Part shown: positions 1 through 64,000 of the stretch, one piece after another
Layout: the number at the start of each line of letters is the position of its first letter
Position numbering within the stretch: the stretch's first letter is position 1
Sequence record: MT446416.1
Length of the DNA stretch: 64,000 nt
Direction: 5' to 3' (one strand)
Source of the DNA: Escherichia virus TH47
Notes under the pieces: model-generated
Databases searched by the model: none
What the model was told of the DNA's origin: nothing
Seen by the model: the letters and a program-made list of their open reading frames with translations, nothing else
Program-made: the position numbers and the translations under genes

Positions 1-375
1 GCTATTATTATCGATATACACCTTCACTCCACTTTCAAGATAATCATTTTCTTTGGAGTTGAAGTTTCTAATAGCAAACTTGACTCCATTTGTTGTATCC
101 GTGAATACATATCGTTCAGCACCGTAGAATGTTCTACCACGAAATAAACTGCCGTCTTCCCACTTCCAACGACTGGAATCATAATCATTAACGTAATCAA
201 TGATTAATGGTAGCAAAGGGTGTTTGCTCAATTTATATTTTGCTTCTAACAGAACACGACGATCTTGATCTGTATTGATACTATCTTTAAGTGAAAAACT
301 TTTTGATATAATTTTAAAGATAATTTCATGCCAAATTAAAGTACTGTTTTGTTTTCCAACTGGGCCAAAAAACAT
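1..375 (-). CDS. hypothetical protein, N-terminal part only (gene runs off the window start)
   Basis: ATG at 373-375 with GAGGA 6 nt upstream; frame stays open to position 1 (about 125 codons); immediately downstream of the stop of the 388-954 gene. Confidence 0.45.
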   Translation of the reverse strand, partial: MFFGPVGKQNSTLIWHEIIFKIISKSFSLKDSINTDQDRRVLLEAKYKLSKHPLLPLIIDYVNDYDSSRWKWEDGSLFRGRTFYGAERYVFTDTTNGVKFAIRNFNSKENDYLESGVKVYIDNNS

Positions 376-387
376 ATTCATTCCTCA

Positions 388-954
388 TTAATATAAATCA
401 GTAATGTCTTTGTATGCATTAAACTGTTTTTGTTGTAATGAAAGTTCATTGAGTTTAGTTACCATTTTATCTACACCGATACGTGTATAGAAAATAATAA
501 ATGAATCTAAATTGCCTAGAGTAATTCTTGAACTGAAATTTGAAAGTTTTCTTGCATAAACATAAATTTCTTCTTCACTTGGTAAACGTTTCTCAATCAG
601 CAAGTTTTCCACAACATTCGGCTCATAAACAATCTCGAACTCTACGCCTATCACAGTATCTTGAATGATATCAGTATATGAACCACCGAAAAAAAACTCT
701 CTTGGTTTGGTTCTCCAACGAGGACTAAATGGGTCAGATGCGTATTCTTTTACAAATTTGTAAAAGGACATTTTACTGAGCATATACTTCATCTCAATTA
801 GTGCTTTGCGGTCATCATCAGTTTTAAACTCTGCTTTGAGCGATGGACTTTTACACAGTAACTTAACTAAATTGTTGTACATCTTTAATGTACGTTGGTC
901 TTTCATTTCTTTGATTTTGTGACGCTTTGGTGGTGGTAGTAAAGATTTGACCAT
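388..954 (-). CDS. hypothetical protein
   Basis: 188-aa ORF, AGGAGGA Shine-Dalgarno upstream of the ATG; no recognisable motif. Confidence 0.55.
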   Translation of the reverse strand: MVKSLLPPPKRHKIKEMKDQRTLKMYNNLVKLLCKSPSLKAEFKTDDDRKALIEMKYMLSKMSFYKFVKEYASDPFSPRWRTKPREFFFGGSYTDIIQDTVIGVEFEIVYEPNVVENLLIEKRLPSEEEIYVYARKLSNFSSRITLGNLDSFIIFYTRIGVDKMVTKLNELSLQQKQFNAYKDITDLY

Positions 955-987
955 AATTTCCTCCTGTATTTTCTAGTATTATACACA

Positions 988-1016
988 TAAAAGAAAAGCC
1001 CGTCAATAGACGAGCT
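988..1016 (-). terminator. rho-independent terminator (minus-strand sense)
   Basis: Stem AGCCCGTC/GACGAGCT (one G-U pair) with a 4-nt loop, followed on the minus strand by TTTCTTTT; 9 nt after the stop of the 1025-3754 gene. Confidence 0.5.
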
Positions 1017-1024
1017 TAAAATTT

Positions 1025-7143: not shown

Positions 7144-7614
7144 TTAAAAGTCTTTATTTTTATATAAAATTCGTTGGTTATTTGAACCACGAAAAGGTAA
7201 TGTTAAATTCTTTTCTTCTGAAACAAATTTACCATCAACTAATACATCTAAGTACTGAAGAATGTCTTTAGCATGATTATCCATAATCTCTTCTAACGTA
7301 TATCCACTCCAGCACCAAATAGTTTTATTGGGATAAGTCTCTTTTACAATCTTACATAGTTCTAAAATTGTTTCTATGTTCTTTTTCATTAGAGGATCTC
7401 CACCAAGGAGGGATAATCCACTAACGTAAGGCTTACTGAGTTCAGCTAAAATTATATCAATTGTATCAGTACTGAACTCTTGTCCACTTCGGTAGTCCCA
7501 TGCATGTTCTGAGTAACATCCGGGGCATCCATGTGAACAACCGCTTACGAAAAGTGAACATCTAACACCTTCACCATTTATCAAATCATCTTTGAAAATT
7601 GCCATATAATTCAT
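7144..7614 (-). CDS. nrdG: anaerobic ribonucleotide reductase activating protein (radical SAM)
   Basis: N-terminal CSHGCPGCYS cysteine cluster (CxxxCxxC-type radical SAM motif); about 156 aa; adjacent to nrdD and grcA; ATGA start/stop overlap with the upstream gene. Confidence 0.85.
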   Translation of the reverse strand: MNYMAIFKDDLINGEGVRCSLFVSGCSHGCPGCYSEHAWDYRSGQEFSTDTIDIILAELSKPYVSGLSLLGGDPLMKKNIETILELCKIVKETYPNKTIWCWSGYTLEEIMDNHAKDILQYLDVLVDGKFVSEEKNLTLPFRGSNNQRILYKNKDF

Positions 7615-8597
7615 TTAATATTCCTTACTAGGTTATTTAAAATCTCCACATGGTTTTCATCATAACGTATTCTGATAAACTGTATATTATTGTCTATACA
7701 GAACTTTGTTTTTATATTGTCATTAATTTGTCTATTAATAAATTCTTTCTCCCCTCCCCAATGTTCAAAAATTTCATAATGTTGTTTACCATCATATTCT
7801 ATTAATATATTATAATCATTCAAATATATGTCAAATGGTAATTTTTGTTTGTTGTAACATTCAGGGAATTTTTTTTCTCGTTCAAAAGATATATTATTTT
7901 TTGTCAATATTTCAATTATATCATACATAGCTTTTGATGTGCTAGTATGTAACGCACACTCTGGGCATCCTCTTCCTGAGTTTAATGATGTTGGTGTAAT
8001 ATTAAATTCATGACCTTTTTCACAAATTGCAATACTAGGAGTTCTTACATTTATATATTTGAATTTATTAAAATTGTAATCTTTGAATTTATTATTTGAT
8101 TTTATTTTTGATATAAAATAATCTGAATCAATATTATGTTTTCTCCCATTTTTCATTTTACAAAGTTCACATCCAGTATTTCCTCTCAAGAAGGTTCTTG
8201 CTCTCAATGTTTTGGATTTTTTATGGATATTACACATAACTGTTATATTATCAACCATGCGAGTATAATCACTGATTAGTGTGAATTTATCTCCATAAAT
8301 TTTATTCATTTCTTGTATGAATTCATATTTTGATTTTGTTATTTTATTATCAGAACATTTTTTACAGCCCTTCCCACTTAAAAGTATATTTGGTGTTGAA
8401 TAAAAATCCGTTTTACATATGTTACAGTGGACATGTATTTTACATTGTGACCCGCCGTATTCATTTAAAAATGTGAATTTTTGTCCATGTATTAACAAAA
8501 TCTTATTAATGAATTCTTCATGTGTAAGTTTACGTGGCATTATTAAAACTCCTTTGACATTTGTGATGTTTATAAATGCCAAAGGGTATATCCTCAT
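7611..8597 (-). CDS. putative free-standing homing-endonuclease-like protein (zinc-ribbon repeats plus C-terminal DUF559/Vsr-like nuclease motif)
   Basis: Three L-x-x-G-x-G-C-x-x-C repeats and a C-terminal ...ILIEYDGKQHYE... motif; more AT-rich than its neighbours and contains no AGTACT. Confidence 0.45.
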   Translation of the reverse strand: MRIYPLAFINITNVKGVLIMPRKLTHEEFINKILLIHGQKFTFLNEYGGSQCKIHVHCNICKTDFYSTPNILLSGKGCKKCSDNKITKSKYEFIQEMNKIYGDKFTLISDYTRMVDNITVMCNIHKKSKTLRARTFLRGNTGCELCKMKNGRKHNIDSDYFISKIKSNNKFKDYNFNKFKYINVRTPSIAICEKGHEFNITPTSLNSGRGCPECALHTSTSKAMYDIIEILTKNNISFEREKKFPECYNKQKLPFDIYLNDYNILIEYDGKQHYEIFEHWGGEKEFINRQINDNIKTKFCIDNNIQFIRIRYDENHVEILNNLVRNIK

Positions 8598-9446: not shown

Positions 9447-10331
9447 TTATAAATGGCGAATTCTCTGAATCACTTCATCTTGCTTTCCTTTATTGAATGG
9501 GCGACTATTTGGTGCACTAAGATATCCGCTAACTCTTCGAATAACTGACATAGATTTTTCATCTCTATTATTACAAACTGGACAGTGGAAACCGTTTTTA
9601 TCGACGCTGAATTCACCTTCAAAATTACATTTATGACAATGATCAACTGGCTGGTTTATTCCAAAATATGGAATTTTTTCATAGGCATAATTGATTAATG
9701 TTTCAAGTGCTTGAATGTTGTTTGTTAAGTTTGGTGTTTCGACATAGCTAATATTACCACCATTGCTTAGATAAGCAAAGTTTTCCTCATAATCCCACTT
9801 TTCAAAAGCAGAACTTTCAACCCATACTGGTTGATGGAATGAATTTGTAATATAATTACGTTTTAGTACTGAAGGGTACTTAGATTCGATGCAACGTGCA
9901 AATTTGTAGCAAAGTGACTCTGCTGGGGTTCCATATAGACTAAAAGCTATGTTACTCTCTTTTTTGAACTCATCGCATTTAACTTTCATATAATTCAGTA
10001 CTGACATACAAAACTCCTTACTGATAGAACCAGTGAGGATTTCTGAACATTCAACAAGTCCAACATAACCAATACTAATACTAGCATAACCATTGTAAAA
10101 TAGTTTGTCAATAGTTTCTTCTGCACCTAAACGTGCTAATGCACCTTCCATGAACAAAATTGGATTCTGTTTCGCTTTAGTGCCTTTTAAACGCTCTACA
10201 CGGTTCATCTGAGCACGATATGCAATATTCATATGCTCATCTATCTTATCAAAAAACTCTCCATCTGAGGCACTTTCAAGAGCAATTAACGGTAGGTTGA
10301 TTGAGACAACCATTTGTACCTTCACTTTCAT
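9447..10331 (-). CDS. nrdD: anaerobic ribonucleoside-triphosphate reductase, C-terminal exon (ORF extends into the intron; true exon probably begins near 10310)
   Basis: C-terminal zinc ribbon CHKCNFEG...CPVCNN followed by the glycyl-radical motif RRVSGYL; the first codons (MKVKVQM) are probably intron sequence. Confidence 0.8.
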   Translation of the reverse strand: MKVKVQMVVSINLPLIALESASDGEFFDKIDEHMNIAYRAQMNRVERLKGTKAKQNPILFMEGALARLGAEETIDKLFYNGYASISIGYVGLVECSEILTGSISKEFCMSVLNYMKVKCDEFKKESNIAFSLYGTPAESLCYKFARCIESKYPSVLKRNYITNSFHQPVWVESSAFEKWDYEENFAYLSNGGNISYVETPNLTNNIQALETLINYAYEKIPYFGINQPVDHCHKCNFEGEFSVDKNGFHCPVCNNRDEKSMSVIRRVSGYLSAPNSRPFNKGKQDEVIQRIRHL

Positions 10332-10354
10332 GAAGGATTAGAGTACACCATACT

Positions 10355-11194
10355 CTAACGAAGAGGAAATGACATATAACCAAGTTTATTTGATAGTTCT
10401 TTATATCCAGAACCGTTATTGATATTTGCAACAGTTTTTCTTCCTACATTTAAACATTTTGCAATTTCGGAATAATTTTTATCTGTATTAATTAGCATAT
10501 CAATAATCTTAGAAACTGTTTTAATAGAATGACGTTTTGATGAATTTTGTGGTTTAAAAATTGGGTATTCAAGTGATTTATTTCGATAGATTACTCCATT
10601 ATTAACATTACAAATGGTGACATTTGAAACATTATATATTTTTGCAATTTCTATACTAGAAACACCATTTCTTAATAACTCATAAATTGAATCTATATTA
10701 TCTTCAATCTTATTTCTTTTGTTATCTCTAATAGGGTATGTTTCATTTATTTGATACCAAGTTTCGCCACAATTTATATCACTAACACAGCCGTATGGGA
10801 CATTTAAAGTTTTTGCTATTTCTACAAATGAAAGATCTTTATGTGATTTGATATATTCTATAATTTTGATAGCATCAATTTCAGTTATTTTACTTCCATT
10901 GAAGGTTTGGTTACCACCTAATGTTGAGTTGTAACCATTCTTATAACTATCATAAATTTCAATATATTTTATTTCTTCATCATTAAGATTATTTAAATCA
11001 ATATTAGTTTTTAAAATTTGAAATGTAAAATTTTCAAAGCCAAATTTTTTAATAGCTTTACTAATACATGATTTTTCATCATTGTTGTTACAGTGTTCCA
11101 CCCATCTTTTCATCGGTGGATATAAAACAGTTTGTCCAATATAAACTTTATTAGTTACTATACACTCTATTTTATATATGCTTCCTTTTCTCAT
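10355..11194 (-). CDS. intron-encoded GIY-YIG homing endonuclease (I-TevII-like)
   Basis: N-terminal IYKIECIVTNKVYIGQT...W..H GIY-YIG motif; GGAGGA Shine-Dalgarno; lies inside the nrdD interruption. Confidence 0.75.
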   Translation of the reverse strand: MRKGSIYKIECIVTNKVYIGQTVLYPPMKRWVEHCNNNDEKSCISKAIKKFGFENFTFQILKTNIDLNNLNDEEIKYIEIYDSYKNGYNSTLGGNQTFNGSKITEIDAIKIIEYIKSHKDLSFVEIAKTLNVPYGCVSDINCGETWYQINETYPIRDNKRNKIEDNIDSIYELLRNGVSSIEIAKIYNVSNVTICNVNNGVIYRNKSLEYPIFKPQNSSKRHSIKTVSKIIDMLINTDKNYSEIAKCLNVGRKTVANINNGSGYKELSNKLGYMSFPLR

Positions 11195-11218
11195 TATATA
11201 TCCTCCATAAAATATTAT

Positions 11219-51989: not shown

Positions 51990-52005
51990 ACCAAATCCTC
52001 CATAA

Positions 52006-52863: not shown

Positions 52864-52874
52864 TCTCCATAAAT

Positions 52875-52909
52875 TTGGACAAAAAATTAGTCGAGAATAA
52901 ATCTCGACT
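52875..52909 (-). terminator. terminator-like hairpin
   Basis: AGTCGAGA-ATAAA-TCTCGACT 8-bp stem followed on the minus strand by AATTTTTTG; overlaps the 3' end of the small ORF. Confidence 0.4.
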
Positions 52910-53018
52910 TGTGTTTTACTTTACCATTCTTCATTGCTTTCTTACGGTCCACATGTGTTTGAGGTTTATTAAACTCATTCATATGCTTTTGTACAAAGTT
53001 GTTTACATTTTTAGCCAT
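52887..53018 (-). CDS. small basic protein (43 aa, MAKNVNNFVQKHMNEFNKPQTHVDRKKAMKNGKVKHKSRFILD)
   Basis: Not in the ORF track; ATG at 53016-53018 with GGAG 5 nt upstream; lies in an otherwise empty 157-bp gap. Confidence 0.25.
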   Translation of the reverse strand: MAKNVNNFVQKHMNEFNKPQTHVDRKKAMKNGKVKHKSRFILD

Positions 53019-53020
53019 AC

Positions 53021-53494: not shown

Positions 53495-53536
53495 GATCTA
53501 TCCTTGATCTTCAAAGGCACTCCATGTGCACATATA

Positions 53537-54037
53537 TTAGGTCACAGCTTTGTATTTCTCCATTGCTTCGGTGATATTCAATACTGCTTGCGGTACGTCA
53601 CTTTTGTTGTATGCAGTGGTTAGTTTTTCCATGTTATTGAGAAGACTAAGAAACAATGGAAGTACTTCTGCATTGTCACTGAAGTTGCAATCATTGACAG
53701 TACTCAATTGGAATAACTCACCCGCATCAACATTGAGTGTGTTGTATTCTTTAACAATGTTTTCTTCAGTATTGAAGATGTAGAATACAGTCCCCATGTG
53801 GTGTAAGTATACACCAGTTTCATTCTGAATATGACATGGGGTGATTACAATTGCTGTGTTATCAATATTATTTACTATTGTCAAACGCAGACTATGTAAC
53901 CCAAAGATTACAGTACAATCCTTTGTACTGTGTTGGATCTGGTCACTAGTAAAGGAAGACCCACTATATATTTTAGATCCATTTAGTATTTCTTTGATAA
54001 TTTTAAATGAATACTTCATCGAATTAGTTAAAAGCAT
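53537..54037 (-). CDS. FQ-motif family member
   Basis: GELFQLST. Confidence 0.55.
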   Translation of the reverse strand: MLLTNSMKYSFKIIKEILNGSKIYSGSSFTSDQIQHSTKDCTVIFGLHSLRLTIVNNIDNTAIVITPCHIQNETGVYLHHMGTVFYIFNTEENIVKEYNTLNVDAGELFQLSTVNDCNFSDNAEVLPLFLSLLNNMEKLTTAYNKSDVPQAVLNITEAMEKYKAVT

Positions 54038-54437
54038 GAACTTTACCTTTAAGTAAATTAATTAATGTTCGCATAGATTCAGTACTGACAGTACCAAAAT
54101 CAACACCTAAGCACTCGTATTGAAAGAACTCAATAGAATCAATTGAGTCCAAAGGAATATCAACAACCTGATTCCCTATACCAGACATAGTAACATTGCT
54201 TTTATTAATCGTCAAGAAGTTTTTTGTATAAGTGTTAAATTTTAGAGAAATCGCGTCGGGGTGCTTTGTAACAATGCAGTACTGGGAACCGTAGACATAT
54301 AGTACTTTACTTTCACTAAGATACGTTTTAAAAAAATGAATCCCATTGAAGTATTTCTCATTGGCGACCATCGCCGCGATTAGTTCATCTGTTGTTGTTA
54401 ACCTTGTTTCGTTCTTCGTTAAACTGTTGAAAAGCAT
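54024..54437 (-). CDS. FQ-motif family member
   Basis: SIEFFQYE; AAGGT Shine-Dalgarno. Confidence 0.5.
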   Translation of the reverse strand: MLFNSLTKNETRLTTTDELIAAMVANEKYFNGIHFFKTYLSESKVLYVYGSQYCIVTKHPDAISLKFNTYTKNFLTINKSNVTMSGIGNQVVDIPLDSIDSIEFFQYECLGVDFGTVSTESMRTLINLLKGKVHAFN

Positions 54438-54858
54438 AGAATACTACCTTAACCATTTGTAGTGTTTCAGACATTACTTCTGATGAAAATTCAACATCAT
54501 TGAATTTCAGCATAGTGTTCTGTGTAAAGAATGTTGCTTCTAAGTCTTCCAGATTGAAAGGTTCATCAAACAAATTAGTACTGAACATGTCAGTCTTCTT
54601 CTTGTATGTGAACAGGAATTTGGAATTATAACGAAGAACTACTTCATCTTTATTGACCAAAATACGTGCAATGTTCTGACGTGTCAATGTGGTAATGTTT
54701 AAATTGAACACGTTCTTGCGTGTTTCAGTGATATCAACAAAATACCCATCTCCCTGATGGATATTACATCGTACATCCAACCCTTTCTGTACTGTATTGA
54801 ACAGTGCATCTTGAATAAAATAATTTGCTGTATCGATGTTTCCTAAAATGTCTAACAT
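54385..54858 (-). CDS. probable FQ-motif family member (degenerate motif)
   Basis: EATFFTQNT. Confidence 0.45.
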   Translation of the reverse strand: MLDILGNIDTANYFIQDALFNTVQKGLDVRCNIHQGDGYFVDITETRKNVFNLNITTLTRQNIARILVNKDEVVLRYNSKFLFTYKKKTDMFSTNLFDEPFNLEDLEATFFTQNTMLKFNDVEFSSEVMSETLQMVKVVFYAFQQFNEERNKVNNNR

Positions 54859-55370
54859 AACTTCTCCTTGATTGCTGTCATATTTAGAAGAAATTCTTCA
54901 AGCAATTCCTCTGTAACATACTCAACATACCAGAATATCATAATATCTTTTGAAAGTCGAGTATTCTTAAAAATATCTACTAACTCTTTGTAGTACTCAA
55001 GATCATATACATCTTTTATAATTAGTGAGTACTGAAATAGTGATTCTTCAGTTAACTTAAATTCTGGATATAGTAAGTCATTAAATTCTAATGATTCTGA
55101 TTGTACTTTTATTTTAGTGAAGTCATTTGTTAATCCACCATTACATCCATATAATGCAGCGTAATTCACGAACTTGGCTTTTGGATTAAAATCAAGAACA
55201 GTTTCACCATTATATGACAATCGGTGGAACGCCGTGAACTTTGTAATTTGCCACGGTAGCTTAATACCTAAGTCATTTATGTCTTTATTATTGTACATAA
55301 GAACAGTGAATATTTCAGCAATCTTCAATAATAATTTAGTACGTGCTAGTACTGTCATAGGTTCAATCAT
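54852..55370 (-). CDS. FQ-motif family member
   Basis: EESLFQYS. Confidence 0.55.
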   Translation of the reverse strand: MIEPMTVLARTKLLLKIAEIFTVLMYNNKDINDLGIKLPWQITKFTAFHRLSYNGETVLDFNPKAKFVNYAALYGCNGGLTNDFTKIKVQSESLEFNDLLYPEFKLTEESLFQYSLIIKDVYDLEYYKELVDIFKNTRLSKDIMIFWYVEYVTEELLEEFLLNMTAIKEKLC

Positions 55371-55783
55371 TATACACCTTCATATTCATCAAGGAAATCT
55401 TCGATGATCATTTCTGCATCATCCATATGCATAGCATCTACTTCAACAATGCGAACCTTAGATGCATCCCAAATCATATAGCTAGGAACTGTATCTGGTT
55501 CGTAATCGTTCTTGTACTGAACAGCATCGTAACCCTTAGAATTACAATGTTCAATCAGCCCACGCCACTCATCATCACTACCTAAATCTTCCCATAGAAG
55601 CACGTTATCAACATCAACTTCTAATGTATGCAAGTATACTGTATTAGCGTCAACAACGTTCAGTGGGCTTCTCAGCTTGCGTAATGCAGCTTCTAAAGCA
55701 CTGTGCTTGCCTCCCATATGAAGGCCACCATACGGGATATAAAAGTTATCAATTTTTACAGTACTCGCATGATACAGTTTCAT
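55370..55783 (-). CDS. hypothetical protein inside the array (no FQ motif seen)
   Basis: 137-aa ORF. Confidence 0.5.
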   Translation of the reverse strand: MKLYHASTVKIDNFYIPYGGLHMGGKHSALEAALRKLRSPLNVVDANTVYLHTLEVDVDNVLLWEDLGSDDEWRGLIEHCNSKGYDAVQYKNDYEPDTVPSYMIWDASKVRIVEVDAMHMDDAEMIIEDFLDEYEGV

Positions 55784-55792
55784 AATTCATTC

Positions 55793-56377
55793 CTATTTCA
55801 GTACTTTGACCAGGGCTTTAACCGCTGTTTCAAGTTGTGCAAAGTCGTTGATTGTAAGATAATGAATACCCAATGTACTCATTTCTGAATCTATTTTACT
55901 ATACAAATCGAACATGTCAAGTAGATATTGATATGTATATGACTCCGATGACACGCATGATTCTTGAAATAGACGTTCTTCCATATCATTTACTACTTCG
56001 TCATTCACGTCTCGAATCACACCATCTTTGTATGTGTAGTAAATCTCATCCCATTCATCTGATAAGTGGAATAGTAAAGGCTTACCATTAAACATCTCAA
56101 GGTCATATGCATTGATTTCACTCAATAACATATCATCAGGATCAGGTGTGAAATCGAATTGGGCGAGTGACGAACCATCATAATCTTTAAGGAATACACC
56201 AATAGCATTCAATTTAACTTCGCCATAATTGCCATTCTTGAACTTCACACGAATATTAATATCAATGTTTTGAACAGTATCATCATCTTGGAACTGATAA
56301 TCAATTTTATACTTTTCCCAAAGTTTTTTAATATCTTTGAAGTACTTAATTTTACTTTCTATTTCTTTAAAGTTCAT
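55793..56377 (-). CDS. FQ-motif family member
   Basis: EERLFQES. Confidence 0.55.
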   Translation of the reverse strand: MNFKEIESKIKYFKDIKKLWEKYKIDYQFQDDDTVQNIDINIRVKFKNGNYGEVKLNAIGVFLKDYDGSSLAQFDFTPDPDDMLLSEINAYDLEMFNGKPLLFHLSDEWDEIYYTYKDGVIRDVNDEVVNDMEERLFQESCVSSESYTYQYLLDMFDLYSKIDSEMSTLGIHYLTINDFAQLETAVKALVKVLK

Positions 56378-56969
56378 CTGGAACCACCATCTCTTGTATG
56401 TTCTTGCATTTTTTCATTGCACAATTAGTATTTAAAATGATAGAGTACTTATGTAATGATTTAATTTTATAACACTCATTAAGTACTGAAATGATGCCCC
56501 ATAACTCTTCTACATCAATAGTGATAGGTTCACTAGTACTAAGTTGCATTAGTGCTGCTTCCACATCATCTTTGTTATTGATTTTGAACTGTATGCCACG
56601 TTTCAGTATTTTGGTTTTTGGATTATACTCTGCCATTACATCACCTTCAGGGTAACCCTCGTGTAATAATAATGTTGTCTCATAATCTCCACAATTGAAA
56701 TTAATTTCATCATAGTCAGGAACACAAATCATTCCTTCACCATATTGATTATCTACTGATTCGATTGTTAAAATACGCTGATGTTCATTACTCAGGATAA
56801 TAGAATCGTGCCAGTACTGCGTAGTGAATTTACTACGTTTCTTTTGACAGCACATACTTGACATGGGGCCATACTTTTTATATAGGGACTTCTTGAATGC
56901 TATCGCACCAGGAGCCACCTTAATAACTTCTCGAATTAGGTCAATAGCTTCTTGATAACTTTTTCTCAT
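56367..56969 (-). CDS. FQ-motif family member (variant)
   Basis: EAALMQLST; start moved to the ATG at 56967-56969 (ATGA overlap with the upstream stop). Confidence 0.45.
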   Translation of the reverse strand: MRKSYQEAIDLIREVIKVAPGAIAFKKSLYKKYGPMSSMCCQKKRSKFTTQYWHDSIILSNEHQRILTIESVDNQYGEGMICVPDYDEINFNCGDYETTLLLHEGYPEGDVMAEYNPKTKILKRGIQFKINNKDDVEAALMQLSTSEPITIDVEELWGIISVLNECYKIKSLHKYSIILNTNCAMKKCKNIQEMVVPDEL

Positions 56970-57517
56970 TTGTCGTACCCATATAAAATATGATCTAGTG
57001 TGCATTGTACTTCTTCATGGAAGAACAACGGGTAAATTTGTATCAATTTTTCTTTAAGTTCAAGTGAATGACATAGTTCCAGTGATTTAATACAATCTTC
57101 GTATTGAACTAAGCTATGTAATGTACTTAACTGAAAATGTTGTTCTTCAGAGTAAGCTAAATCATATACCAAATTATCATTTAATAGATTTGATTTAGTT
57201 GAAGGATCAAGTACTGTGTTGCTATGACCTACCCAGAAAAAAGCATTGGTGTTCATATTATTACAACCCCAACCTGTCCCCATTTTCTGGTGAATAGCAA
57301 AGACACAACTATCATAGAGATTAATACCAAGACGTTCTTCGTTGACATAAATCGTAACACCATCGATTGTCATGGTTATTTGGAAACGCATTGAACCTTC
57401 ACTTCGTGAACGTGCACAGAAGCCAAGATAACGGTTAATAATTGTATTGATTTTATCTGCCCATCCTTCCACATCTTTGGATGCACATAATTTAAAAAGA
57501 TCATGACTTTGGTTCAT
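56966..57517 (-). CDS. FQ-motif family member
   Basis: EEQHFQLST. Confidence 0.55.
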   Translation of the reverse strand: MNQSHDLFKLCASKDVEGWADKINTIINRYLGFCARSRSEGSMRFQITMTIDGVTIYVNEERLGINLYDSCVFAIHQKMGTGWGCNNMNTNAFFWVGHSNTVLDPSTKSNLLNDNLVYDLAYSEEQHFQLSTLHSLVQYEDCIKSLELCHSLELKEKLIQIYPLFFHEEVQCTLDHILYGYDK

Positions 57518-57528
57518 GTAGTTCTCCG

Positions 57529-58110
57529 TTAATCAAGCATAAGTGGCATCATCGCCCATATCTTTTTCATAATCATATCTTCAGTAAAAACAAACGTTTT
57601 AGGTGCAGTATATGATATTGACAACCCAAATGGAAGTACGATTGCATCATCAATTATATTATGAATATCAAACCATGTTTTTACACAATCATATGGTGGA
57701 AGTTCATGTATTGTACTTAACTGAAAGTATTGTTCTTCGCCAAAAGTACTGCAATCAATATCACAAATTTTAGTGAAATGATGATTCCATTTAGATATAA
57801 TACTGTTTTTATTATTGGACATATTAGTTCTATGCATGAAACCATTTCTGCTAATATAATTTGATATTGCGTTTTCTTCAATATCATTGCTTATTTTAAA
57901 ATTCATGTAAAAGTTGTAGTACACACTCGACGATTCTTTGAATTTTAAATGAAAATAACGATTGTTATTAATTTCCATTTCAATACAAAACACATCTGAA
58001 TCAAAACGATTAAACTTGTAATCGTTGTCTTCAGGTAGAGTCTGTAATTTTTTCATAACACCAAGCATAGGGTGCACTAAGCTTCTAATAAAATCATTAG
58101 TTATTTTCAT
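57529..58110 (-). CDS. FQ-motif family member
   Basis: EEQYFQLST. Confidence 0.55.
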   Translation of the reverse strand: MKITNDFIRSLVHPMLGVMKKLQTLPEDNDYKFNRFDSDVFCIEMEINNNRYFHLKFKESSSVYYNFYMNFKISNDIEENAISNYISRNGFMHRTNMSNNKNSIISKWNHHFTKICDIDCSTFGEEQYFQLSTIHELPPYDCVKTWFDIHNIIDDAIVLPFGLSISYTAPKTFVFTEDMIMKKIWAMMPLMLD

Positions 58111-58603
58111 AGTATTCCTTTAGAACTTTAAATGATTCAACAATACTATCTTGTGTGTAATTAGAACTATATACAATTGCATTTGATTTGATTGACCACA
58201 GATATGACATAAAGGTTATAACACTACTGCATGAACTTAATGTATTGTTTTGGAATTCATTTTCTTCAATGTTATCAGTACTGGTATTGATGAATTGGAT
58301 AGTATCTTGTTTCTGATTAGACATTGAAACTAAAGTACAATCAGTATAAGGAGTGTACAAAAACGTCTCATTACTAATTGAACTATCATTAGTATATGAT
58401 GGTTTGGTAATATAAATCAAACGCATGATATCACGCTCAAGACCCGATTTACTACTTTCCACTAAAGAAATCATATCTATATTTTTCATATGATCAACAT
58501 TGACATGGAACTTTTTGTTGAGAATTACATCTTTTGGAGAATTTTTATATGAAGATAAGATCTCATACATCTCAACTAATTCTCGTGCATTTAATAAACT
58601 CAT
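58097..58603 (-). CDS. FQ-motif family member
   Basis: EENEFQNNT. Confidence 0.5.
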   Translation of the reverse strand: MSLLNARELVEMYEILSSYKNSPKDVILNKKFHVNVDHMKNIDMISLVESSKSGLERDIMRLIYITKPSYTNDSSISNETFLYTPYTDCTLVSMSNQKQDTIQFINTSTDNIEENEFQNNTLSSCSSVITFMSYLWSIKSNAIVYSSNYTQDSIVESFKVLKEYYENN

Positions 58604-59028
58604 GTTTTGTCTCTTAATGAAAGAATATACTTAGTATAAACTGAAACTGAAATATGATTATATTTCATCATTAATTTATACACATAAGAAGCTAGTACTA
58701 AATCGTAAATTAATTTAGTATCATACAGTACTCCGTATTGTAAAGCAAGTGAATCAATATCATCTTTACTTTCAATATCCAGAAATGTACCGAAAATTGT
58801 AGTACCGTGAAGATGAAAAGTGGAATTAATGCAATCAATGCATTGATTGTCCAACAGTGTAGATGCAGATGCCCTTTGTGAATCCCAAATTGTCAGTACA
58901 TGTTTTTCATCAACAAACAAATCTATCCATGTTTTGTGTCGTTGCTTTTTTTGTGTTTTATAATTTTCTGGATTTGAAAGTGTAGTGTCAATTATATCCC
59001 ATATGTATAAGCATTCATCTCTTGTCAT
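58600..59028 (-). CDS. hypothetical protein inside the array (motif weak or absent)
   Basis: 142-aa ORF. Confidence 0.5.
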   Translation of the reverse strand: MTRDECLYIWDIIDTTLSNPENYKTQKKQRHKTWIDLFVDEKHVLTIWDSQRASASTLLDNQCIDCINSTFHLHGTTIFGTFLDIESKDDIDSLALQYGVLYDTKLIYDLVLASYVYKLMMKYNHISVSVYTKYILSLRDKT

Positions 59029-59606
59029 TATAGCACCTTATCCATTGCTGCATTTAATGCTTTTAAACGATCAACATTCAAAGTATTGAAGATGTACGTT
59101 CCTAAAATGTGGAAATCGAATTGGTTCTTTTTGTATGTGTGATAAATTAAACTACAAAAAACAACAGTACTAAGAACCTCTTCAGGTATAACGGTGCTCA
59201 TCTGAAACAGTTCTTCATCAACTGTACTTGATTCTGGATTGATAGCTTTTAACTCATACTCTTTATCACCGAATAGTACTTTAATATTATATAAAACACC
59301 AACAGTACTAATATGAAATGGATGGTGTGAAAAACTTCCATCATCATTAATTTGGATATCGGATCTAATCTCGCACTCTTCATTACTTTTACTATTATTT
59401 TTTACAATACAAATATTCCTGGCACCAGAAATAGTAAGAATACCGTGATCGTAATATTCTTTGGACAAACATTTAGATGAAAATGACACATCACGAATGA
59501 GGTAATGTTTGTTAATTTCTTTGGCACTACCAACAATGTGTAGCATCTTTGTACTGATATCATATAGCTGTTGGTGTCGGGCTGTCATATAACTATAAGC
59601 GTTCAT
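59028..59606 (-). CDS. FQ-motif family member
   Basis: DEELFQMST. Confidence 0.55.
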   Translation of the reverse strand: MNAYSYMTARHQQLYDISTKMLHIVGSAKEINKHYLIRDVSFSSKCLSKEYYDHGILTISGARNICIVKNNSKSNEECEIRSDIQINDDGSFSHHPFHISTVGVLYNIKVLFGDKEYELKAINPESSTVDEELFQMSTVIPEEVLSTVVFCSLIYHTYKKNQFDFHILGTYIFNTLNVDRLKALNAAMDKVL

Positions 59607-60177
59607 ATGTATCCTTGATGTTTTTGATTGCCGTGTGTAGCTCTTTTAATGTATCGGATTCACAGTTAATGAACTTACTATACATTACCAATTCACCAGT
59701 GTCAATAGCTTTTGCAGTTTCATAGCAAAGCATCATGTACTCAAACTCCTTGAAGTTGTCAAGTACTGATCTCTGGAAAATGTATGCTTCACGAATGTCT
59801 TCACTTTGATCTAGTTCTGGTGGAATTTCCAAATATGTATCATCCTCTACGTCATCAAAATTAGATTCAACAATTCGATTAATATCTTCGTGTAAAGCAT
59901 TGACAAATATCATGTTTGGGGTAATGGAACCGATTTGCTCACCATGCCTTGATGTACGGATATACATTGCCATAGTATCCCATGAACCTTTTTTTGTCGT
60001 TCCATAATCGTAAACTTTATAAGACTCCAGTGTCACTGAACCAAAACGATATGGTAATTTGCTTTCAACTTTAAGACGATAATTTCCAATAGGATCATGA
60101 ACGGTAATGTTGTGCTTATCAGATAGTTCTGCAATGTCATGCATCAATTTCATAATTTGAATGTGTTCAGCTTGCAT
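59593..60177 (-). CDS. FQ-motif family member
   Basis: EAYIFQRS. Confidence 0.5.
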   Translation of the reverse strand: MQAEHIQIMKLMHDIAELSDKHNITVHDPIGNYRLKVESKLPYRFGSVTLESYKVYDYGTTKKGSWDTMAMYIRTSRHGEQIGSITPNMIFVNALHEDINRIVESNFDDVEDDTYLEIPPELDQSEDIREAYIFQRSVLDNFKEFEYMMLCYETAKAIDTGELVMYSKFINCESDTLKELHTAIKNIKDTYERL

Positions 60178-60740
60178 TATAAGTCCTCTAATTTAACAGG
60201 TACATGTTCATTAATGAACTTCTTAAGAGCCAGTACTAGATCTTCTAATTCTTCTGTACTGAATTTTAAAATAGTTTTAAAGAATATCAATTCATTTCTT
60301 TCTATAATCTTTGGAATTTCATATGCTAACATAAGATTGCGAACAGTGTAAGCGTTATGTATGAGGTTCGCATTGAATAAAAGTACATCGTACTCGTCTT
60401 TTTTAATTTTATAATTGTACTCTTCAATTACTTCATGTGTGTATGTATTCTTATAAGCAATTTTATTTTTATGAAAGTTATAACCAACAGTAACACTTTC
60501 ATCATAAAATGTAGAACGATAATCTTGTTTTCTATCACCCGACGAAATGATGTGTAATGCTGTGTATTTGTCCTCAACATCTAACTCAATGTTTGCATAA
60601 CTGTTAACAGTTTCATTCTTTAGGACATTAATGTTATATTTCTCATTAATTTTAATGTGCTGGCGTGAACCATTATCTTCAATGAACTTAAAACAATGCT
60701 TTATCAACAATGTGATTTCTTTAATTAATTCAGTACTCAT
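60177..60740 (-). CDS. probable FQ-motif family member (degenerate motif)
   Basis: DVLLFNANL. Confidence 0.45.
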   Translation of the reverse strand: MSTELIKEITLLIKHCFKFIEDNGSRQHIKINEKYNINVLKNETVNSYANIELDVEDKYTALHIISSGDRKQDYRSTFYDESVTVGYNFHKNKIAYKNTYTHEVIEEYNYKIKKDEYDVLLFNANLIHNAYTVRNLMLAYEIPKIIERNELIFFKTILKFSTEELEDLVLALKKFINEHVPVKLEDL

Positions 60741-60827
60741 ATCTTCTCCTGTACTCTGTTAAAAGCGATTATAACACACCTGAATGCTCATGTAAAGCAC
60801 TAAACACAAAAAGACCCATAAGGGTCT

Positions 60828-61346
60828 TTATTTTGGTAAAACGCGGTCAAGGTACGCTAGATCCTCATCTTGGAGGTACGTTCCATCTATTGTTATGTAA
60901 TAGTTCTTAGGGATATCACAACCTATCTTCTCGTAAATTTGCATACATGATATCACATCTTCATCACAAATGGTACTCAATTGAAACAGTACTTCATCAG
61001 TTAGCGGCACAATATCATGTTTAGATATGGGGTTGGTATTTTCATTCAAAACAACATCAAACAAACTGGGAGTATTCTTTGACGAAATGTAACGATGCTT
61101 ACTACGAATTACCATTCTCGATAGTGAAATACTGGAACTCCATCTTGGGTCCACATCTTCGTATGATAGCGAAACTAACATTTCATAATAATCTTGGAAT
61201 TTCATTGATGCATAATATGTTTTTTCCTCACCGTACATTCCAAATGATTTGAATTCAATGTCACCTACATTGTGTGTATCACTCGCACTATTCACGAAAT
61301 TTAACAGACTGTTGATTAGTCTGATTAGAATATCATCTTTATTCAT
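60828..61346 (-). CDS. FQ-motif family member
   Basis: DEVLFQLST; start moved to the ATG at 61344-61346 (track start is TTG). Confidence 0.5.
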   Translation of the reverse strand: MNKDDILIRLINSLLNFVNSASDTHNVGDIEFKSFGMYGEEKTYYASMKFQDYYEMLVSLSYEDVDPRWSSSISLSRMVIRSKHRYISSKNTPSLFDVVLNENTNPISKHDIVPLTDEVLFQLSTICDEDVISCMQIYEKIGCDIPKNYYITIDGTYLQDEDLAYLDRVLPK

Positions 61347-61896
61347 TATCAGATAACTCCCTGTGCATGTCGTATAAATCTCGAAAGTCCTGATAGAAAT
61401 CTTTTTCTTCAAGAATATCTTTTAAACTAGGAATCTCAACCATAATCTCATCGATATCAGTTTCAATAGTAAAACCTGATTTATAATTTTGTAAGAGATA
61501 ACTAAAAGCAACAAGATAAAGAATTTCATTTGGTTTATGAATTAACATGTGTTGGAACATAACTGATTCTAAATCAGATTCAGTACTAAGGTCAGCATAA
61601 CATGTATCGTTGGTGTCAATTCGTACTTTACTTGAATTTGGATTCCATGTAAAGCAATGTGTTCCAACTGTTCCCAAACATCCTACTCTTGTACTATCAT
61701 TTGTTCCCAAAAAGATATCAAAATACGTTTCATCTGTATAATCGTATTTTTGTACTTTACCTTTTTTAAGGCATAAATCATTATCCTTTCGAAAAGTTTT
61801 AGATGATAGTGTATCAATGATGCACATTAATGTTTTTGCAAATGCAATACAATGACGTAATTCAAGTCTATGGAAATTATAATTAGTAAAATTCAT
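61339..61896 (-). CDS. FQ-motif family member (variant)
   Basis: ESVMFQHML. Confidence 0.5.
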   Translation of the reverse strand: MNFTNYNFHRLELRHCIAFAKTLMCIIDTLSSKTFRKDNDLCLKKGKVQKYDYTDETYFDIFLGTNDSTRVGCLGTVGTHCFTWNPNSSKVRIDTNDTCYADLSTESDLESVMFQHMLIHKPNEILYLVAFSYLLQNYKSGFTIETDIDEIMVEIPSLKDILEEKDFYQDFRDLYDMHRELSDNE

Positions 61897-62435
61897 AATT
61901 GTACCTTCAATATTTTATCAGCAATTGATATAACCTTGTCATTGAATACATTACCAATCTCAATTCTTATATACATCGCAGGTGGAATCTTTCCCTGAAG
62001 TGCATAATATGTTTGTATACCTAAGTACTCATTATTTGATAATGAAAATTTGATTCTCTCCATATCTATGTCTGATGTTGGTAAATCTAGTAGTTCATGG
62101 TTGTAGTCAACATTTTCAGTGTATATCTGTTCGACGTAATTTGAATAGTCACTACTAATGTAGATACTATCATCACGGATAATTACTTTATAATTAGAAG
62201 GTTTAAACTTATCTTTAGGAGAAAAGAAGACATCATCTATCTTCTCTTCTCGGACACCGAATAACAATTTACCATCGTACTTTACATCAAGCATACTATC
62301 TAGAATAGTAATTACACAATGATCATCAATGTTATGACGTAAAGAACGAGTCTTGTATTTTGGGTTAATGAAAATTTTCATTAATTTTATACAAATGTCA
62401 GTAATGCATTTTACATTATCATTTTCTATGTACAT
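61893..62435 (-). CDS. probable FQ-motif family member (degenerate motif)
   Basis: MERIKFSLS. Confidence 0.45.
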   Translation of the reverse strand: MYIENDNVKCITDICIKLMKIFINPKYKTRSLRHNIDDHCVITILDSMLDVKYDGKLLFGVREEKIDDVFFSPKDKFKPSNYKVIIRDDSIYISSDYSNYVEQIYTENVDYNHELLDLPTSDIDMERIKFSLSNNEYLGIQTYYALQGKIPPAMYIRIEIGNVFNDKVISIADKILKVQL

Positions 62436-62913
62436 CGTAAATCCTCTTTAATTCTTTTACATTTTTAATGAATACTTTCATTGCAGAAATCTCAAAAGCT
62501 AATGATTTAAATTTGCAGTACTTTTTAAAGTACGACATAATGAATAGCATCTTGAGTTCTTTTTCTGTGTAAATTAAAGTATTTTGAAAGTAACTTTCTT
62601 CTGATAAATCATCAATAAAAGGATATATAACTCCATTTGTTCTCAAGAACATGATACCTTCACTCCATGATCTAAATGAAATGTAATCAGTCTTACCACA
62701 TTCATATAAGGAGTTTATCATTCCGTCAATCATTAAGGAGAACTCAATACTGTATCCTAATCGTTGACACTTGTATCTCTTATCTTCTTTCTTTGTAATT
62801 ACGAAGTGGCGACCCAATGAGTCTTTGTTATCGAAAATGAAATCAACTGTCTCTAAACACTCCTTAGCGAACTTCATAGTTTCTCTGTACTTTCTGTTCA
62901 TTAGTCTCTCCAA
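62419..62913 (-). CDS. FQ-motif family member
   Basis: EESYFQNT. Confidence 0.55.
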   Translation of the reverse strand: MERLMNRKYRETMKFAKECLETVDFIFDNKDSLGRHFVITKKEDKRYKCQRLGYSIEFSLMIDGMINSLYECGKTDYISFRSWSEGIMFLRTNGVIYPFIDDLSEESYFQNTLIYTEKELKMLFIMSYFKKYCKFKSLAFEISAMKVFIKNVKELKRIYDVHRK

Positions 62914-63314
62914 ACTTTACCAGGGAAGTGTTTCTCGTAGAACTCATCATCACTTAACATATAATCAGGTGTTTCTACTTCTATGGGTTTGTAGAATGTT
63001 TCTGGGATGTGTGTAATTTTATTTGGTTGTACTTTATGTTCGCGTAAAACCTTCTGTATAGCTCCTAGGCGTTGTAAATCAATACAGGTGGGCAGAACTA
63101 AGCTGTACTGAAATAGCTCGTCAGGGGTCATTATAGACACATCCTTAGCTTGTTTGATTTTATTGTTGGTATCAATGAATATATCAAATCCAAGTACTGC
63201 ATTATAGCTTACATAGGTTGTTTTGTTTTTGTCAATAGCTGCACTTAAACTATATCCATATATTCCGTATCGGTCAACCATGCATCGTTGCATAATTTTA
63301 ATCATTTCGAACAT
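62901..63314 (-). CDS. FQ-motif family member
   Basis: PDELFQYS. Confidence 0.55.
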   Translation of the reverse strand: MFEMIKIMQRCMVDRYGIYGYSLSAAIDKNKTTYVSYNAVLGFDIFIDTNNKIKQAKDVSIMTPDELFQYSLVLPTCIDLQRLGAIQKVLREHKVQPNKITHIPETFYKPIEVETPDYMLSDDEFYEKHFPGKVWRD

Positions 63315-63663
63315 AATTTACCTCGTATGTGTTATAATTCCACGCTTTAACACTATCCATTTGTATATCCTGAACTTCATGGAAATATTTAAGTACCTTC
63401 TGGTATTCCATTAGTTCGTACACATCTTCAGTACTGACAGTACTCTCCTGAAACAATTCCTCTTCTGATAAAGTACTATAATCAGGGATTTTTATTTCAG
63501 AATATATCTCATTTATATATGAATCATTTTGGTAAATCTGTAGATAAAACTGATTATATTCAGGGATATAGGTTACGAAATGGTTCTCGTTGAATTCATA
63601 TCTTGAAGCAAAGTATTCATTGCCATCCGTCATGTACTGAATTGTTGTAGTATTATTATGCAT
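63298..63663 (-). CDS. FQ-motif family member
   Basis: EEELFQEST. Confidence 0.55.
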   Translation of the reverse strand: MHNNTTTIQYMTDGNEYFASRYEFNENHFVTYIPEYNQFYLQIYQNDSYINEIYSEIKIPDYSTLSEEELFQESTVSTEDVYELMEYQKVLKYFHEVQDIQMDSVKAWNYNTYEVNYVRND

Positions 63664-64000
63664 TTAAATAATCCACACATTTATAGTATACTGCTAAATC
63701 TAAAAAGAATCGTTGTTTGTATTTGTAATGATGAAGTAGTGCACCATAAAGTAATATAGCATTAAGTACTTTTGCATCATGAATACAAGACCATTGGAAG
63801 TACATTTCTTCAGTCATAAAAACTAACTCACTATAAGGGACAAACATTGCATCTCTAAATGTATCAATGTTAATCTTTAAATCAGACCCTTGGCAATATG
63901 AAATATATTCACCTTTGTAATGAAAGTCATTATCGTCAAAGTACTCAGCATATACTTGATTGCCCCTATTATTTTTAAAGGCAAGTCTTCCTTTGGTTGA
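63656..64000 (-). CDS. FQ-motif family member, 3' part (gene probably starts beyond the window end)
   Basis: EEMYFQWS; the frame stays open from the ATG at 63847 up to position 64000 with no stop, and in the other members the motif sits at least 55 residues from the N-terminus. Confidence 0.45.
   Translation of the reverse strand, partial: STKGRLAFKNNRGNQVYAEYFDDNDFHYKGEYISYCQGSDLKINIDTFRDAMFVPYSELVFMTEEMYFQWSCIHDAKVLNAILLYGALLHHYKYKQRFFLDLAVYYKCVDYLNA

Follow-up and report, generated by a model that had tools for sequence, protein, structure and literature searches.

Phages normally lose short palindromes to restriction, and a palindrome that goes the opposite way implies a strong and unrecognised function at the DNA level. 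The question raised by the genome of Escherichia virus TH47 is what maintains one such palindrome, AGTACT, throughout a 64,000-nucleotide stretch of sequence record MT446416.1 (hereafter the window, meaning the whole stretch that was analysed). The Escherichia coli jumbo myoviruses WPEC3, fEgEco12, Ecwhy_1 and CMSTMSU are 98% identical to the window, and the Asteriusvirus phages PBECO4 and 121Q are 76% identical. The window is part of a Rak2-like jumbo myovirus, a group with genomes of 350-385 kb, and it aligns to positions 41.7-105.7 kb of fEgEco12 in the opposite orientation. The results outlined below identify AGTACT as a genome signature that is real, under strong selection and not described before. 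We propose, with a probability of about 45%, that AGTACT (in its fullest form TTCAGTACTGAA) is a selected double-stranded DNA recognition site for a putative two-fold symmetric protein, encoded either by the phage or by its host.

AGTACT enrichment in the TH47 window

An exact count over positions 1-64000 returned 175 copies of AGTACT (2.73 per kb, or about one per 350 bases), of which 38 take the extended form CAGTACTG and 10 the form TCAGTACTGA. The number of AGTACT copies expected in 64,000 bases is 21.5 from base composition, 16.8 under a first-order Markov model and 31.7 under a second-order model, and the corresponding expectations for CAGTACTG are 0.6, 0.8 and 1.8. A preliminary description, made from the letters of the window alone, had estimated about 150 or more copies of AGTACT against about 20 expected, and at least 35 extended palindromes against fewer than one; the exact counts surpass the first of these estimates and bear out the second. 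It also reported recurrent 12-mers, but the full 12-bp palindrome TTCAGTACTGAA has only two exact matches in the window, at positions 15527-15538 and 40750-40761.

No other 6-bp palindrome in the window comes close to the over-representation of AGTACT (approximately 8-fold, with GTGCAC as runner-up at only 2.2-fold), and the three highest enrichments among all 6-mers are those of CAGTAC, GTACTG and AGTACT. CAGTAC and GTACTG are each enriched about 10-fold, and AGTAC without a T after it 1.4- to 2.3-fold. Many other 6-bp palindromes are scarce in the window (1 copy of CCATGG, 4 of AAGCTT and 5 of CTTAAG, with expectations of 5-21). It was further observed that CAGCTG and CGTACG are absent from the window and from all the Rak2-like loci, and that GGTACC is absent from these loci bar that of RaK2 (8 copies), with 4-6 copies of each expected per 50 kb. 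The depletion of many other 6-bp palindromes in the Rak2-like loci is typical restriction-site avoidance, and it makes the excess of AGTACT more striking.

The 116 genes called in the window lie all on the minus strand and cover 96% of its length. Site by site, 168 copies of AGTACT fall fully within one called open reading frame (ORF) and 7 outside, and the count in the pooled coding sequences is 169. The motif occurs in all three reading frames, as AGT-ACT (Ser-Thr) in 82 cases, as xxA-GTA-CTx in 61 and as xAG-TAC-Txx in 25. Shuffling synonymous codons within each gene yielded 44.1 +/- 5.8 copies against the 169 observed (z=21.6), and shuffling codon order yielded 23.8 +/- 4.9 (z=29.8); for CAGTACTG, the same shuffles gave 3.9 and 0.9 against 38 observed. 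The enrichment persists under Markov and codon-preserving null models alike. Ser-Thr pairs are encoded as AGT-ACT in 82 of 154 instances, with 20.9 expected, and the dipeptides Ser-Thr and Val-Leu are over-used 1.6-fold, whereas the reversed Thr-Ser and Leu-Val are not. Amino-acid usage is hence bent towards the motif, and the signal acts at the DNA level, as the preliminary description had maintained from its occurrence in several frames; codon or amino-acid usage is insufficient to account for it. Counts per gene fit a Poisson distribution over the 116 genes (chi-square 92.7, 115 degrees of freedom), and not a single pair of sites 20 bp apart was found in the window. Regular spacing or clustering was discarded on these two observations, no formal spacing test having been made.

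The bases that flank the motif in the window are symmetric. C is found at position -1 in 47% of the sites and G at +1 in 46%, with G at -1 in only 5%; further out, positions -2 to -4 are T-rich and +2 to +4 A-rich, A is favoured at -7 to -9, and the symmetry extends to +/-9. Departures from the motif, as gauged by one-mismatch counts in the window, concentrate at the outer positions. The consensus form of the site is roughly TTCAGTACTGAA.

Distribution in related phages and selection on individual sites

Enrichment of AGTACT was observed in two loci of fEgEco12 (9.4- and 6.9-fold) and in PBECO4 (6.9-fold), Klebsiella phage RaK2 (6.7-fold), Cronobacter phage GAP32 (6.7-fold), Pectobacterium phage CBB (6.6-fold) and 121Q (5.2-fold). 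Pooled over the clade, the 472 kb sampled contain 1,369 copies (2.9 per kb), with individual loci presenting 2.3-3.2 sites per kb and 5- to 9-fold enrichment. The enriched phages belong to Asteriusvirus, the group of the window itself, Alcyoneusvirus and Mimasvirus, four genera infecting Enterobacterales, and the claim that the motif is an old signature of the core genome is upheld by this shared enrichment. The flank rule is also common to the four genera, with G at -1 in 5-9% and C in 43-57% of the sites across the loci examined.

No enrichment was detected in the Pseudomonas relative PA5oct (3 copies against 17 expected), in T4 (4 against 17; 0.08 per kb) or in RB43 (0 against 9), and the motif is equally sparse in the host DNA sampled, with 3 copies against 11.6 expected in 50 kb of E. 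coli K-12 (0.06 per kb) and none against 4 expected in 20 kb of an Enterobacter chromosome. Per kb, the density in the phages is approximately 45-fold above that of the sampled host DNA. None of 75 environmental relatives, with tail-sheath proteins at most 54% identical to the query, was enriched either; AGTACT is mostly depleted in them, and about 30 of the 75 lack it altogether, many of them on short contigs. Given that these more distant relatives and PA5oct are unenriched, the trait is, within this lineage, limited to the enterobacterial Rak2-like clade.

An excess of a different palindrome, CAGCTG, at 4- to 16-fold above expectation, was noticed in several short IMG/VR contigs of distant tail-sheath relatives (L022, L016, L064, L078 and L065), which could reflect a different iterated palindrome or a composition effect of the sheath gene. 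This modest excess, restricted to a few short contigs, was the only trace of an analogous palindrome in the more distant relatives. Two further loci flagged by a scan of the collection for dense AGTACT were set aside as carriers: L155, with a rigid extended context that is probably a repeated coding unit, and L110, with weak enrichment and without the flank rule.

To assess the conservation of individual sites, in-phase 6-mers located 12-24 bases from each site were used as controls. Between the window and PBECO4, 77% of the sites are conserved, against 46% of the flanking 6-mers (p=9e-14), and the corresponding values are 69% against 37% between GAP32 and CBB, and 61% against 40% between fEgEco12 and 121Q/PBECO4. 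In codon-aligned orthologues of fEgEco12 and GAP32, at 66% nucleotide identity, 12 of 40 sites are shared (30%), compared with 12% for all 6-mers and with 0.09 sites expected by chance. About 70% of the sites have therefore turned over between genera, with density remaining constant. These comparisons indicate that purifying selection maintains individual sites, with turnover between genera.

None of the one-mismatch neighbours of AGTACT is depleted in the window, most being mildly enriched, and the alternative alleles at polymorphic sites match the genome-wide substitution spectrum, without an excess of C-to-T changes. These observations are consistent with mutation-selection balance on functional sites and not with a conversion drive of the very-short-patch type, and conversion from a specific neighbour was accordingly rejected. 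The suggestion in the preliminary description that AGTACT might be a repair hotspot finds no support in the same evidence, and the packaging, uptake-type and Chi-like roles that it raised would be analogies only.

AGTACT in early promoters of related phages

The scan of the collection for dense AGTACT also flagged stretches in RaK2, 121Q and GAP32. The 220-240 kb region of RaK2, characterised by small genes and long spacers, has 85 of its 137 sites in intergenic DNA, at 12.3 per kb against 4.0 per kb in genes. At least 18 sigma-70-type promoters of the form TTGACA-N9/10-(C)AGTACTG-(n)-TATAAT were found in it, and about 14 of them present a second AGTACT fused to the -35 element (AGTACTTGACA), exactly 20 bp upstream. 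There are 16 pairs of sites exactly 20 bp apart in RaK2, against almost none in other regions. The G after AGTACT completes an upstream TG, such that the CATAAT and TATTAT forms fit an extended -10 element, and in the TATAAT form this TG abuts the hexamer.

A similar arrangement was identified in the first 20.8 kb of fEgEco12, which encompass the terminal repeat and the early region, lie beyond the right end of the window and contain 137 sites (6.6 per kb). This early region harbours 17 AGTACTG-(n)-YAWWWT sites, all of them on the coding strand and 14 with a clear TTGA -35 element, and includes 12 promoters with a perfect 12/12 match to the sigma-70 consensus. One promoter of this AGTACT type was found in the 121Q fragments examined. 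The window contains no such promoters: hardly any of its intragenic sites precede a -10-like hexamer, and none has an upstream -35 element.

A fixed register of AGTACT relative to the -35 and -10 elements of many promoters is hence a feature of the relatives RaK2 and fEgEco12, outside the window, and provides the strongest hint at a function of the motif. Two palindromic sites on the same face of the DNA, at a fixed register over a core promoter, represent the classical operator layout for a dimeric regulator, and a role of AGTACT as an early-promoter operator is supported by this promoter anatomy.

Two additional types of element were noted in these regions. In the 220-240 kb region of RaK2 (at 8447, 11367, 12254 and 15601), perfect extended palindromes are centred on the motif (GGGAATCAGTACTGATTCCC, GGGATTCAGTACTGAATCCC and GGGTATCAGTACTGATACCC), several of them (e.g. 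GGGAATCAGTACTGATTCCC) just upstream of ribosome-binding sites, which could be high-affinity operators or RNA hairpins. At 9491, 13489, 16758 and 19510 of the fEgEco12 early region, a 28-base hairpin (AAAGGGATTGACTCCGGTCAGTCCCTTT) is repeated, followed by GCTATTATAT; its stem holds a TTGACT -35-like hexamer, and from its sequence the element looks like a fused terminator and promoter.

An oriented variant of the motif next to the window

Two blocks of fEgEco12, at 20,857-26,616 and 29,016-37,647, are poor in AGTACT, with a single site each, and are separated by a 2.4-kb stretch with 15 sites. The probability of an 8.6-kb gap in AGTACT arising by chance is approximately e^-27. The 29,016-37,647 block is preserved in PBECO4 (42548-50000 of the sampled locus) at 80% identity, and its counterpart there is likewise AGTACT-free, indicating that the block is not a recent acquisition.

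The 8.6-kb block presents 46 instances of AGTACA on its coding strand (15.6-fold enrichment, 5.3 per kb) and none of TGTACT on that strand. These instances are spread over all reading frames (17/14/12) and are flanked by C and G (CAGTACAG), and the sixth position of AGTAC words in the block is A in 46 cases, C in 3, G in 2 and T in 1. The PBECO4 block contains 43 AGTACA with the same polarity, and 24 of 38 sites are positionally conserved, compared with 40% for flanking 6-mers. The 20,857-26,616 block weakly shows the opposite polarity, with 9 instances of TGTACT.

Coding-strand AGTACA is raised for about 25 kb beyond the 8.6-kb block and into the right end of the window, which as a whole has 66 instances on the coding strand against 34 on the other. 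At positions 52001-64000 (minus strand), coding-strand AGTACA, read as TGTACT on the plus strand, occurs 10, 6 and 9 times per 4 kb, against about 3 elsewhere; this segment lies at the margin of a gradient with its maximum in the adjoining AGTACT-free block.

A second, unrelated family of carriers

The collection scan also revealed a diverse family of viral contigs of 25-34 kb with 3-5 AGTACT per kb (L164-L171, L175-L177, L184, L187-L206, L117-L118 and L189; e.g. IMGVR_UViG_3300011647_000020 and IMGVR_UViG_2927261028_000001). Pooled, they contain 1,042 copies in 258 kb, at a guanine-cytosine (GC) content of 0.41. Their gene content includes a lambda-like siphovirus structural module, a lysozyme and endonucleases of the HNH and SegE-like types, and their terminases are 43-45% identical to one another. 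No DNA methyltransferase, polymerase, primase or integrase was detected in them, the methyltransferase having been sought with Pfam and PHROGs in 41 ORFs. None of 50,697 phage records is related to them at the nucleotide level, and the closest terminase, 40% identical, belongs to a phage without AGTACT enrichment. Enterobacterales hosts are suggested by a tail-fibre segment and by the homologues of one gene, which occur in Enterobacter, Pantoea, Leclercia, Cronobacter, Yersinia and Hafnia.

These small siphoviruses keep the flank rule of the jumbo phages, with C in 44-62% and G in 6-9% of the sites at -1 and T at -3 and -4, and they avoid other palindromes (0 copies of GGTACC, 0 of CTGCAG and 2 of GGATCC, each against 39 expected). 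Their non-coding DNA presents clusters of 2-3 sites within 20-36 bp. Sharing of the motif by the two families may reflect a host-encoded reader, a small and fast-evolving reader undetectable by sequence search, or mimicry of a mark of the jumbo phages. The fact that a second family of carriers has no detectable methyltransferase weakens the case for a phage methyltransferase as the cause of the enrichment.

A protein of 186-188 residues encoded by the small phages (L176:4289-4852, minus strand; L213/L214:10001-10561) was also noted. It contains a D...ExK motif, its fold is predicted with a predicted local distance difference test (pLDDT) score of 90.7, and it is the best conserved protein between two subgroups of these phages, at 67% identity compared with 45% for the terminase. 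In Enterobacter huaxiensis it also exists as a lone low-GC gene located between yccX and rlmI, and other Enterobacterales chromosomes encode it too. Its motif and weak fold matches hint weakly at a nuclease of the PD-(D/E)XK type. It was considered as a factor linked to the motif and set aside, as no link to AGTACT could be shown.

Motif-free insertions and other features of the window

Insertions were defined independently of the motif, as DNA of the window without a match in fEgEco12. Four of them, with nuclease-like or unassigned ORFs, contain no AGTACT over a combined 3,847 bp, in which about 11 copies would be expected, and have a GC content of 0.26-0.30; the remaining unmatched blocks are diverged core genes with normal motif density. 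The largest gaps in AGTACT in the window are individually non-significant. The first insertion (7623-8596, minus strand, GC 0.26) is absent from fEgEco12 and PBECO4, and its ORF (7611-8597) has a treble-clef zinc-finger (DUF4379) match and a weak CapR match. The third (36302-37072, minus strand), absent from fEgEco12, carries a Seg-like GIY-YIG/NUMOD3 ORF (36327-37067, weak Pfam matches), and the fourth (42872-43799, minus strand, GC 0.26), also absent from fEgEco12, an ORF (42880-43812) with a weak CoiA_N match.

The second insertion spans 1,174 bp within nrdD (10311-11484, minus strand) and carries a GIY-YIG ORF (10355-11194), taken as a homing-endonuclease gene. It falls exactly between residues 314 and 315 and leaves residues 1-314 and 315-600 intact. 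The bases at its boundaries are group-I-like, with the exon ending in T and the insert in G, and a separate ATG for the downstream half of nrdD lies seven codons before the junction. An Rfam search of the insertion matched no intron model at either threshold, including E<=1. Judged by its boundaries, the insertion may be a group I intron, with a split gene as an alternative.

The preliminary description had listed four selfish elements lacking the motif. This stands for the 7611-8597 gene, the nrdD insertion, the Seg-like gene and the 42872-43799 segment, but not for the remainder of its last block, the gene at 42126-42854 (minus strand). This is a core gene with no sites in the window, and its fEgEco12 homologue, 82% identical, bears sites; the absence hence points to chance or turnover and not to foreign origin.

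A gene at 48196-48720 (minus strand) encodes a predicted Dam-like N6-adenine methyltransferase (PF05869, E=3.5e-33). The phage Dam family PF05869 is mostly GATC-specific. GATC occurs 95 times in the window, against 199 expected, and at 0.5-fold across the clade, despite the encoded Dam-family methyltransferase. With this family assignment and no link to AGTACT, the gene was judged an unlikely reader and is probably unrelated to the motif; its candidacy in the preliminary description is further undermined by the second AGTACT-rich family, in which no DNA methyltransferase is detectable.

Several other features of the window were recorded. About 20 consecutive minus-strand ORFs of 137-212 residues each, at 53000-63700, resemble a paralogous gene array. 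In the window and other Rak2-like loci, the E. coli Chi octamer GCTGGTGG is found 2-5 times per 50-64 kb, against about 0.3 expected. Six-mers of the GGTGGT and CACCAG types are enriched 5- to 8-fold in the Rak2-like loci, possibly as a codon effect (Gly-Gly, Trp).

A putative reader of AGTACT

If AGTACT is the recognition site of a two-fold symmetric protein, selection would maintain it across the entire phage genome, at a density of 2-4 copies per kb. The putative reader would act on early promoters as an operator protein, with the shutting off of early transcription as its simplest role. The approximately 1,000 copies per genome, extrapolated from 2.9 per kb and mostly intragenic, would set phage DNA apart from host DNA. 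As sites are some 45-fold sparser per kb in host DNA, phage DNA could be acted on selectively by this protein or by a partner, which might coat, organise, silence or protect it.

We also consider a broader and more doubtful version of this proposal. AGTACT could be a sequence-encoded self-mark, for which a single reader, whether a protein of the Enterobacterales host or an injected or very early phage protein, switches early promoters and coats or protects phage DNA. The two families would have converged on the mark, or the small phages would mimic it, and the AGTACA block would escape or polarise the reader.

Several observations weigh against a dimeric reader. A purely symmetric dimer model fails to predict the 8.6-kb block, which swaps the palindrome for oriented AGTACA. 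A Pfam scan of 43 proteins from the fEgEco12 early region found no recognisable DNA-binding domain. In local BLASTP comparisons, the proteins that the small siphoviruses have in common with the Rak2-like phages are only a mobile HNH/AP2 endonuclease and a lysozyme domain, and a TBLASTN search with 13 concatenated small-phage proteins against all phage records matched no Rak2-like genome. The intragenic sites of the window lack promoter context, and the genome-wide copies would need a second, putative role. Furthermore, about 1,000 ScaI-type sites would imply high vulnerability to AGTACT-specific restriction, unless they are modified or occupied.

Alternative explanations

The oriented AGTACA block is the main reason for placing substantial weight on an alternative that we nevertheless hold to be unlikely, in which the functional unit is the half-site (C)AGTAC read on one strand by a machine that travels along DNA or acts on single strands; it could be read by a primase on the lagging-strand template, as a Chi-like signal for a helicase-nuclease or as an RNA motif. 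The palindrome would then be the cheapest way of presenting the half-site in two orientations, and the oriented variant would be used where one orientation suffices. The roughly 10-fold enrichment of CAGTAC and GTACTG and the 1.4- to 2.3-fold excess of AGTAC followed by a base other than T agree with this, as do the 46 coding-strand AGTACA of fEgEco12 29,016-37,647, with their polarity repeated in PBECO4 and 24 of 38 sites conserved against 40% of controls, and the 2:1 coding-strand bias of AGTACA in the window. The weakly opposite polarity of 20,857-26,616, with a dense palindromic stretch between the two blocks, would likewise resemble a divergence point such as an origin. The half-site model does not predict, however, that the sixth position in the block should be specifically A, the palindrome being avoided there and not merely unneeded. 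Flank symmetry to +/-9 is typical of duplex recognition by a dimer, and the copies in promoter spacers and at 20-bp spacing occupy fixed positions upstream of the transcript, which argues against an RNA signal. The small siphoviruses, moreover, lack a recognisable primase, helicase or recombination nuclease of the jumbo-phage type. A by-product of composition, codon usage, codon-pair preference or a few repeated protein motifs has next to no probability. AGT, ACT and GTA are common codons, and a fourth-order Markov model yields 151 copies out of the 175, but it does so because its 5-mers already contain the signal. The shuffles yield only 44 and 24 copies of the 169 observed, the motif occurs in every reading frame and also in non-coding DNA, gene-level counts are Poisson over the 116 genes and relatives of similar GC content show depletion; this explanation was refuted by the frames, the shuffles and the depleted relatives.

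A methylation-linked iterated palindrome is, in our assessment, an improbable explanation. In it, an AGTACT or GTAC methyltransferase would modify the sites, and the modification would protect them, or linked mismatch repair would create or maintain them, as envisaged for the highly iterated palindrome HIP1. Motif departures are biased to the outer positions in AGTACT, and reportedly also in HIP1 (Elhai, in 2015). Other 6-bp palindromes are strongly avoided (CAGCTG, CGTACG and GGTACC at 0 per 50 kb in most loci) and yet about 1,000 ScaI-type sites are tolerated, which suggests that these sites are shielded, and the clade encodes several DNA methyltransferases (PMC11895373, PMC5259590). The sole methyltransferase in the window is, however, the PF05869 Dam, and the small-phage family with the densest motif (4-5 per kb) has none detectable by Pfam or PHROGs in 41 ORFs. 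The undepleted neighbours and the lack of a C-to-T excess at the site make a repair or conversion drive unlikely, and the fact that both sampled host chromosomes are unenriched makes a host-wide repair or mutational bias unlikely. Methylation alone would also leave the fixed promoter register unexplained. It is very improbable, in turn, that the sites recruit the host nucleoid-occlusion protein SlmA (GTGAGTACTCAC), with phage DNA then blocking the FtsZ ring and cells filamenting. The SlmA site has the identical central 6 bp (PMC3020112, PMC3116907); Asteriusvirus Sharanji filaments its cells, with DNA spread throughout, and encodes no known division inhibitor (PMC11895373); and the hosts of all the enriched phages are, or appear to be, Enterobacterales, the motif being absent from the Pseudomonas relative PA5oct. 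SlmA nevertheless requires G1, T2 and a purine at position 3 flanking AGYRCT (PMC3020112), and the loci examined contain no full sites and only 2-5 half-sites each (4 in the window). Its consensus base G at -1 is the most disfavoured in the phages (5-9%), with C preferred, and AGTACT was rejected as a SlmA-binding site on the grounds of these flanks and the lack of full sites.

Comparison with known systems

The combination of properties outlined here, with a palindrome that is eight-fold enriched and selected, alters the proteins of hundreds of genes, lies in early promoters and recurs in two unrelated phage families of the same host order, provides a direct experimental handle on poorly understood jumbo phages that have no phage nucleus and, at least in fEgEco12, no bulk base modification. 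In practice, AGTACT could serve as a metagenome marker for these phage groups and as a marker of foreign insertions in their genomes. A search of the accessible literature found no description of the motif, of the promoter strings and architecture or of the methylome of these phages, in agreement with the preliminary description, which knew of no phage feature with this motif.

AGTACT is identical to the six-base target of ScaI and Eco255I, and it is depleted in T4, RB43, PA5oct, E. coli and Enterobacter as a restriction target would be. In the window, by contrast, it is enriched 8-fold and not avoided, and no cognate enzyme pair was found in the examined sequence. Chi, the FtsK-orienting polar sequences (KOPS) and the uptake signal and DNA uptake sequences (USS/DUS) of competent bacteria are short over-represented words, found also inside genes, that are read by a machine and are asymmetric and oriented with replication. 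AGTACT resembles them as a short word over-represented genome-wide, also within genes, but is palindromic with symmetric flanks; orientation is confined to AGTACA, which is strictly strand-specific in one block and biased 2:1 in the window. SlmA sites (GTGAGTACTCAC) of Enterobacterales are closer in sequence, being dimer-read palindromes with the same central six bases in the same host order. The outer bases that they require are absent or disfavoured around the phage AGTACT, and they number about 50 per host chromosome (PMC3116907), against an extrapolated 1,000 or so per phage genome.

The putative role of AGTACT as a mark of phage DNA has a parallel in modified bases, and by this analogy AGTACT may function as a self-mark. 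T4 carries hydroxymethylcytosine, which is read by Alc, and SPO1 carries hydroxymethyluracil, with TF1 preferring phage DNA and repressing early promoters. As in these phages, a phage-wide feature that is nearly absent from the host would be coupled to the control of early promoters; the AGTACT mark would differ in being a sequence and not a modified base. The DNA of fEgEco12 is cut normally by ten restriction enzymes, ScaI not among them, and is therefore not bulk-modified (PMC13070987).

The closest known phenomenon is HIP1 (GCGATCGC) of cyanobacteria. Like HIP1, AGTACT is a short palindrome with a conserved core and weaker outer positions that appears once per few hundred bases, within genes and in all frames, is shared across a lineage and missing from recent acquisitions, and is maintained in the genome. 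The descriptive traits of an iterated palindrome are all found in it: a many-fold excess genome-wide (8-fold in the window and 5- to 9-fold in 472 kb from four genera), intragenic occurrence in all frames beyond codon usage (82/25/61, with shuffle z-scores of 21.6 and 29.8), and sharing by the lineage combined with absence from recent insertions. The proposed methyltransferase link was not detected. HIP1 is GC-rich and found in cells, whereas AGTACT is AT-rich and found in a virus. A cognate methyltransferase, reportedly present wherever the palindrome is frequent in Elhai's correlation, is central to the HIP1 model; the jumbo phages encode methyltransferases that may or may not recognise AGTACT, and the small-phage family has none detectable. 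AGTACT also differs from HIP1 in its fixed place in promoters and in its oriented one-base variant in one block. It thereby offers a second, independent system in which to address why highly iterated palindromes exist, a question that HIP1 has posed for decades.

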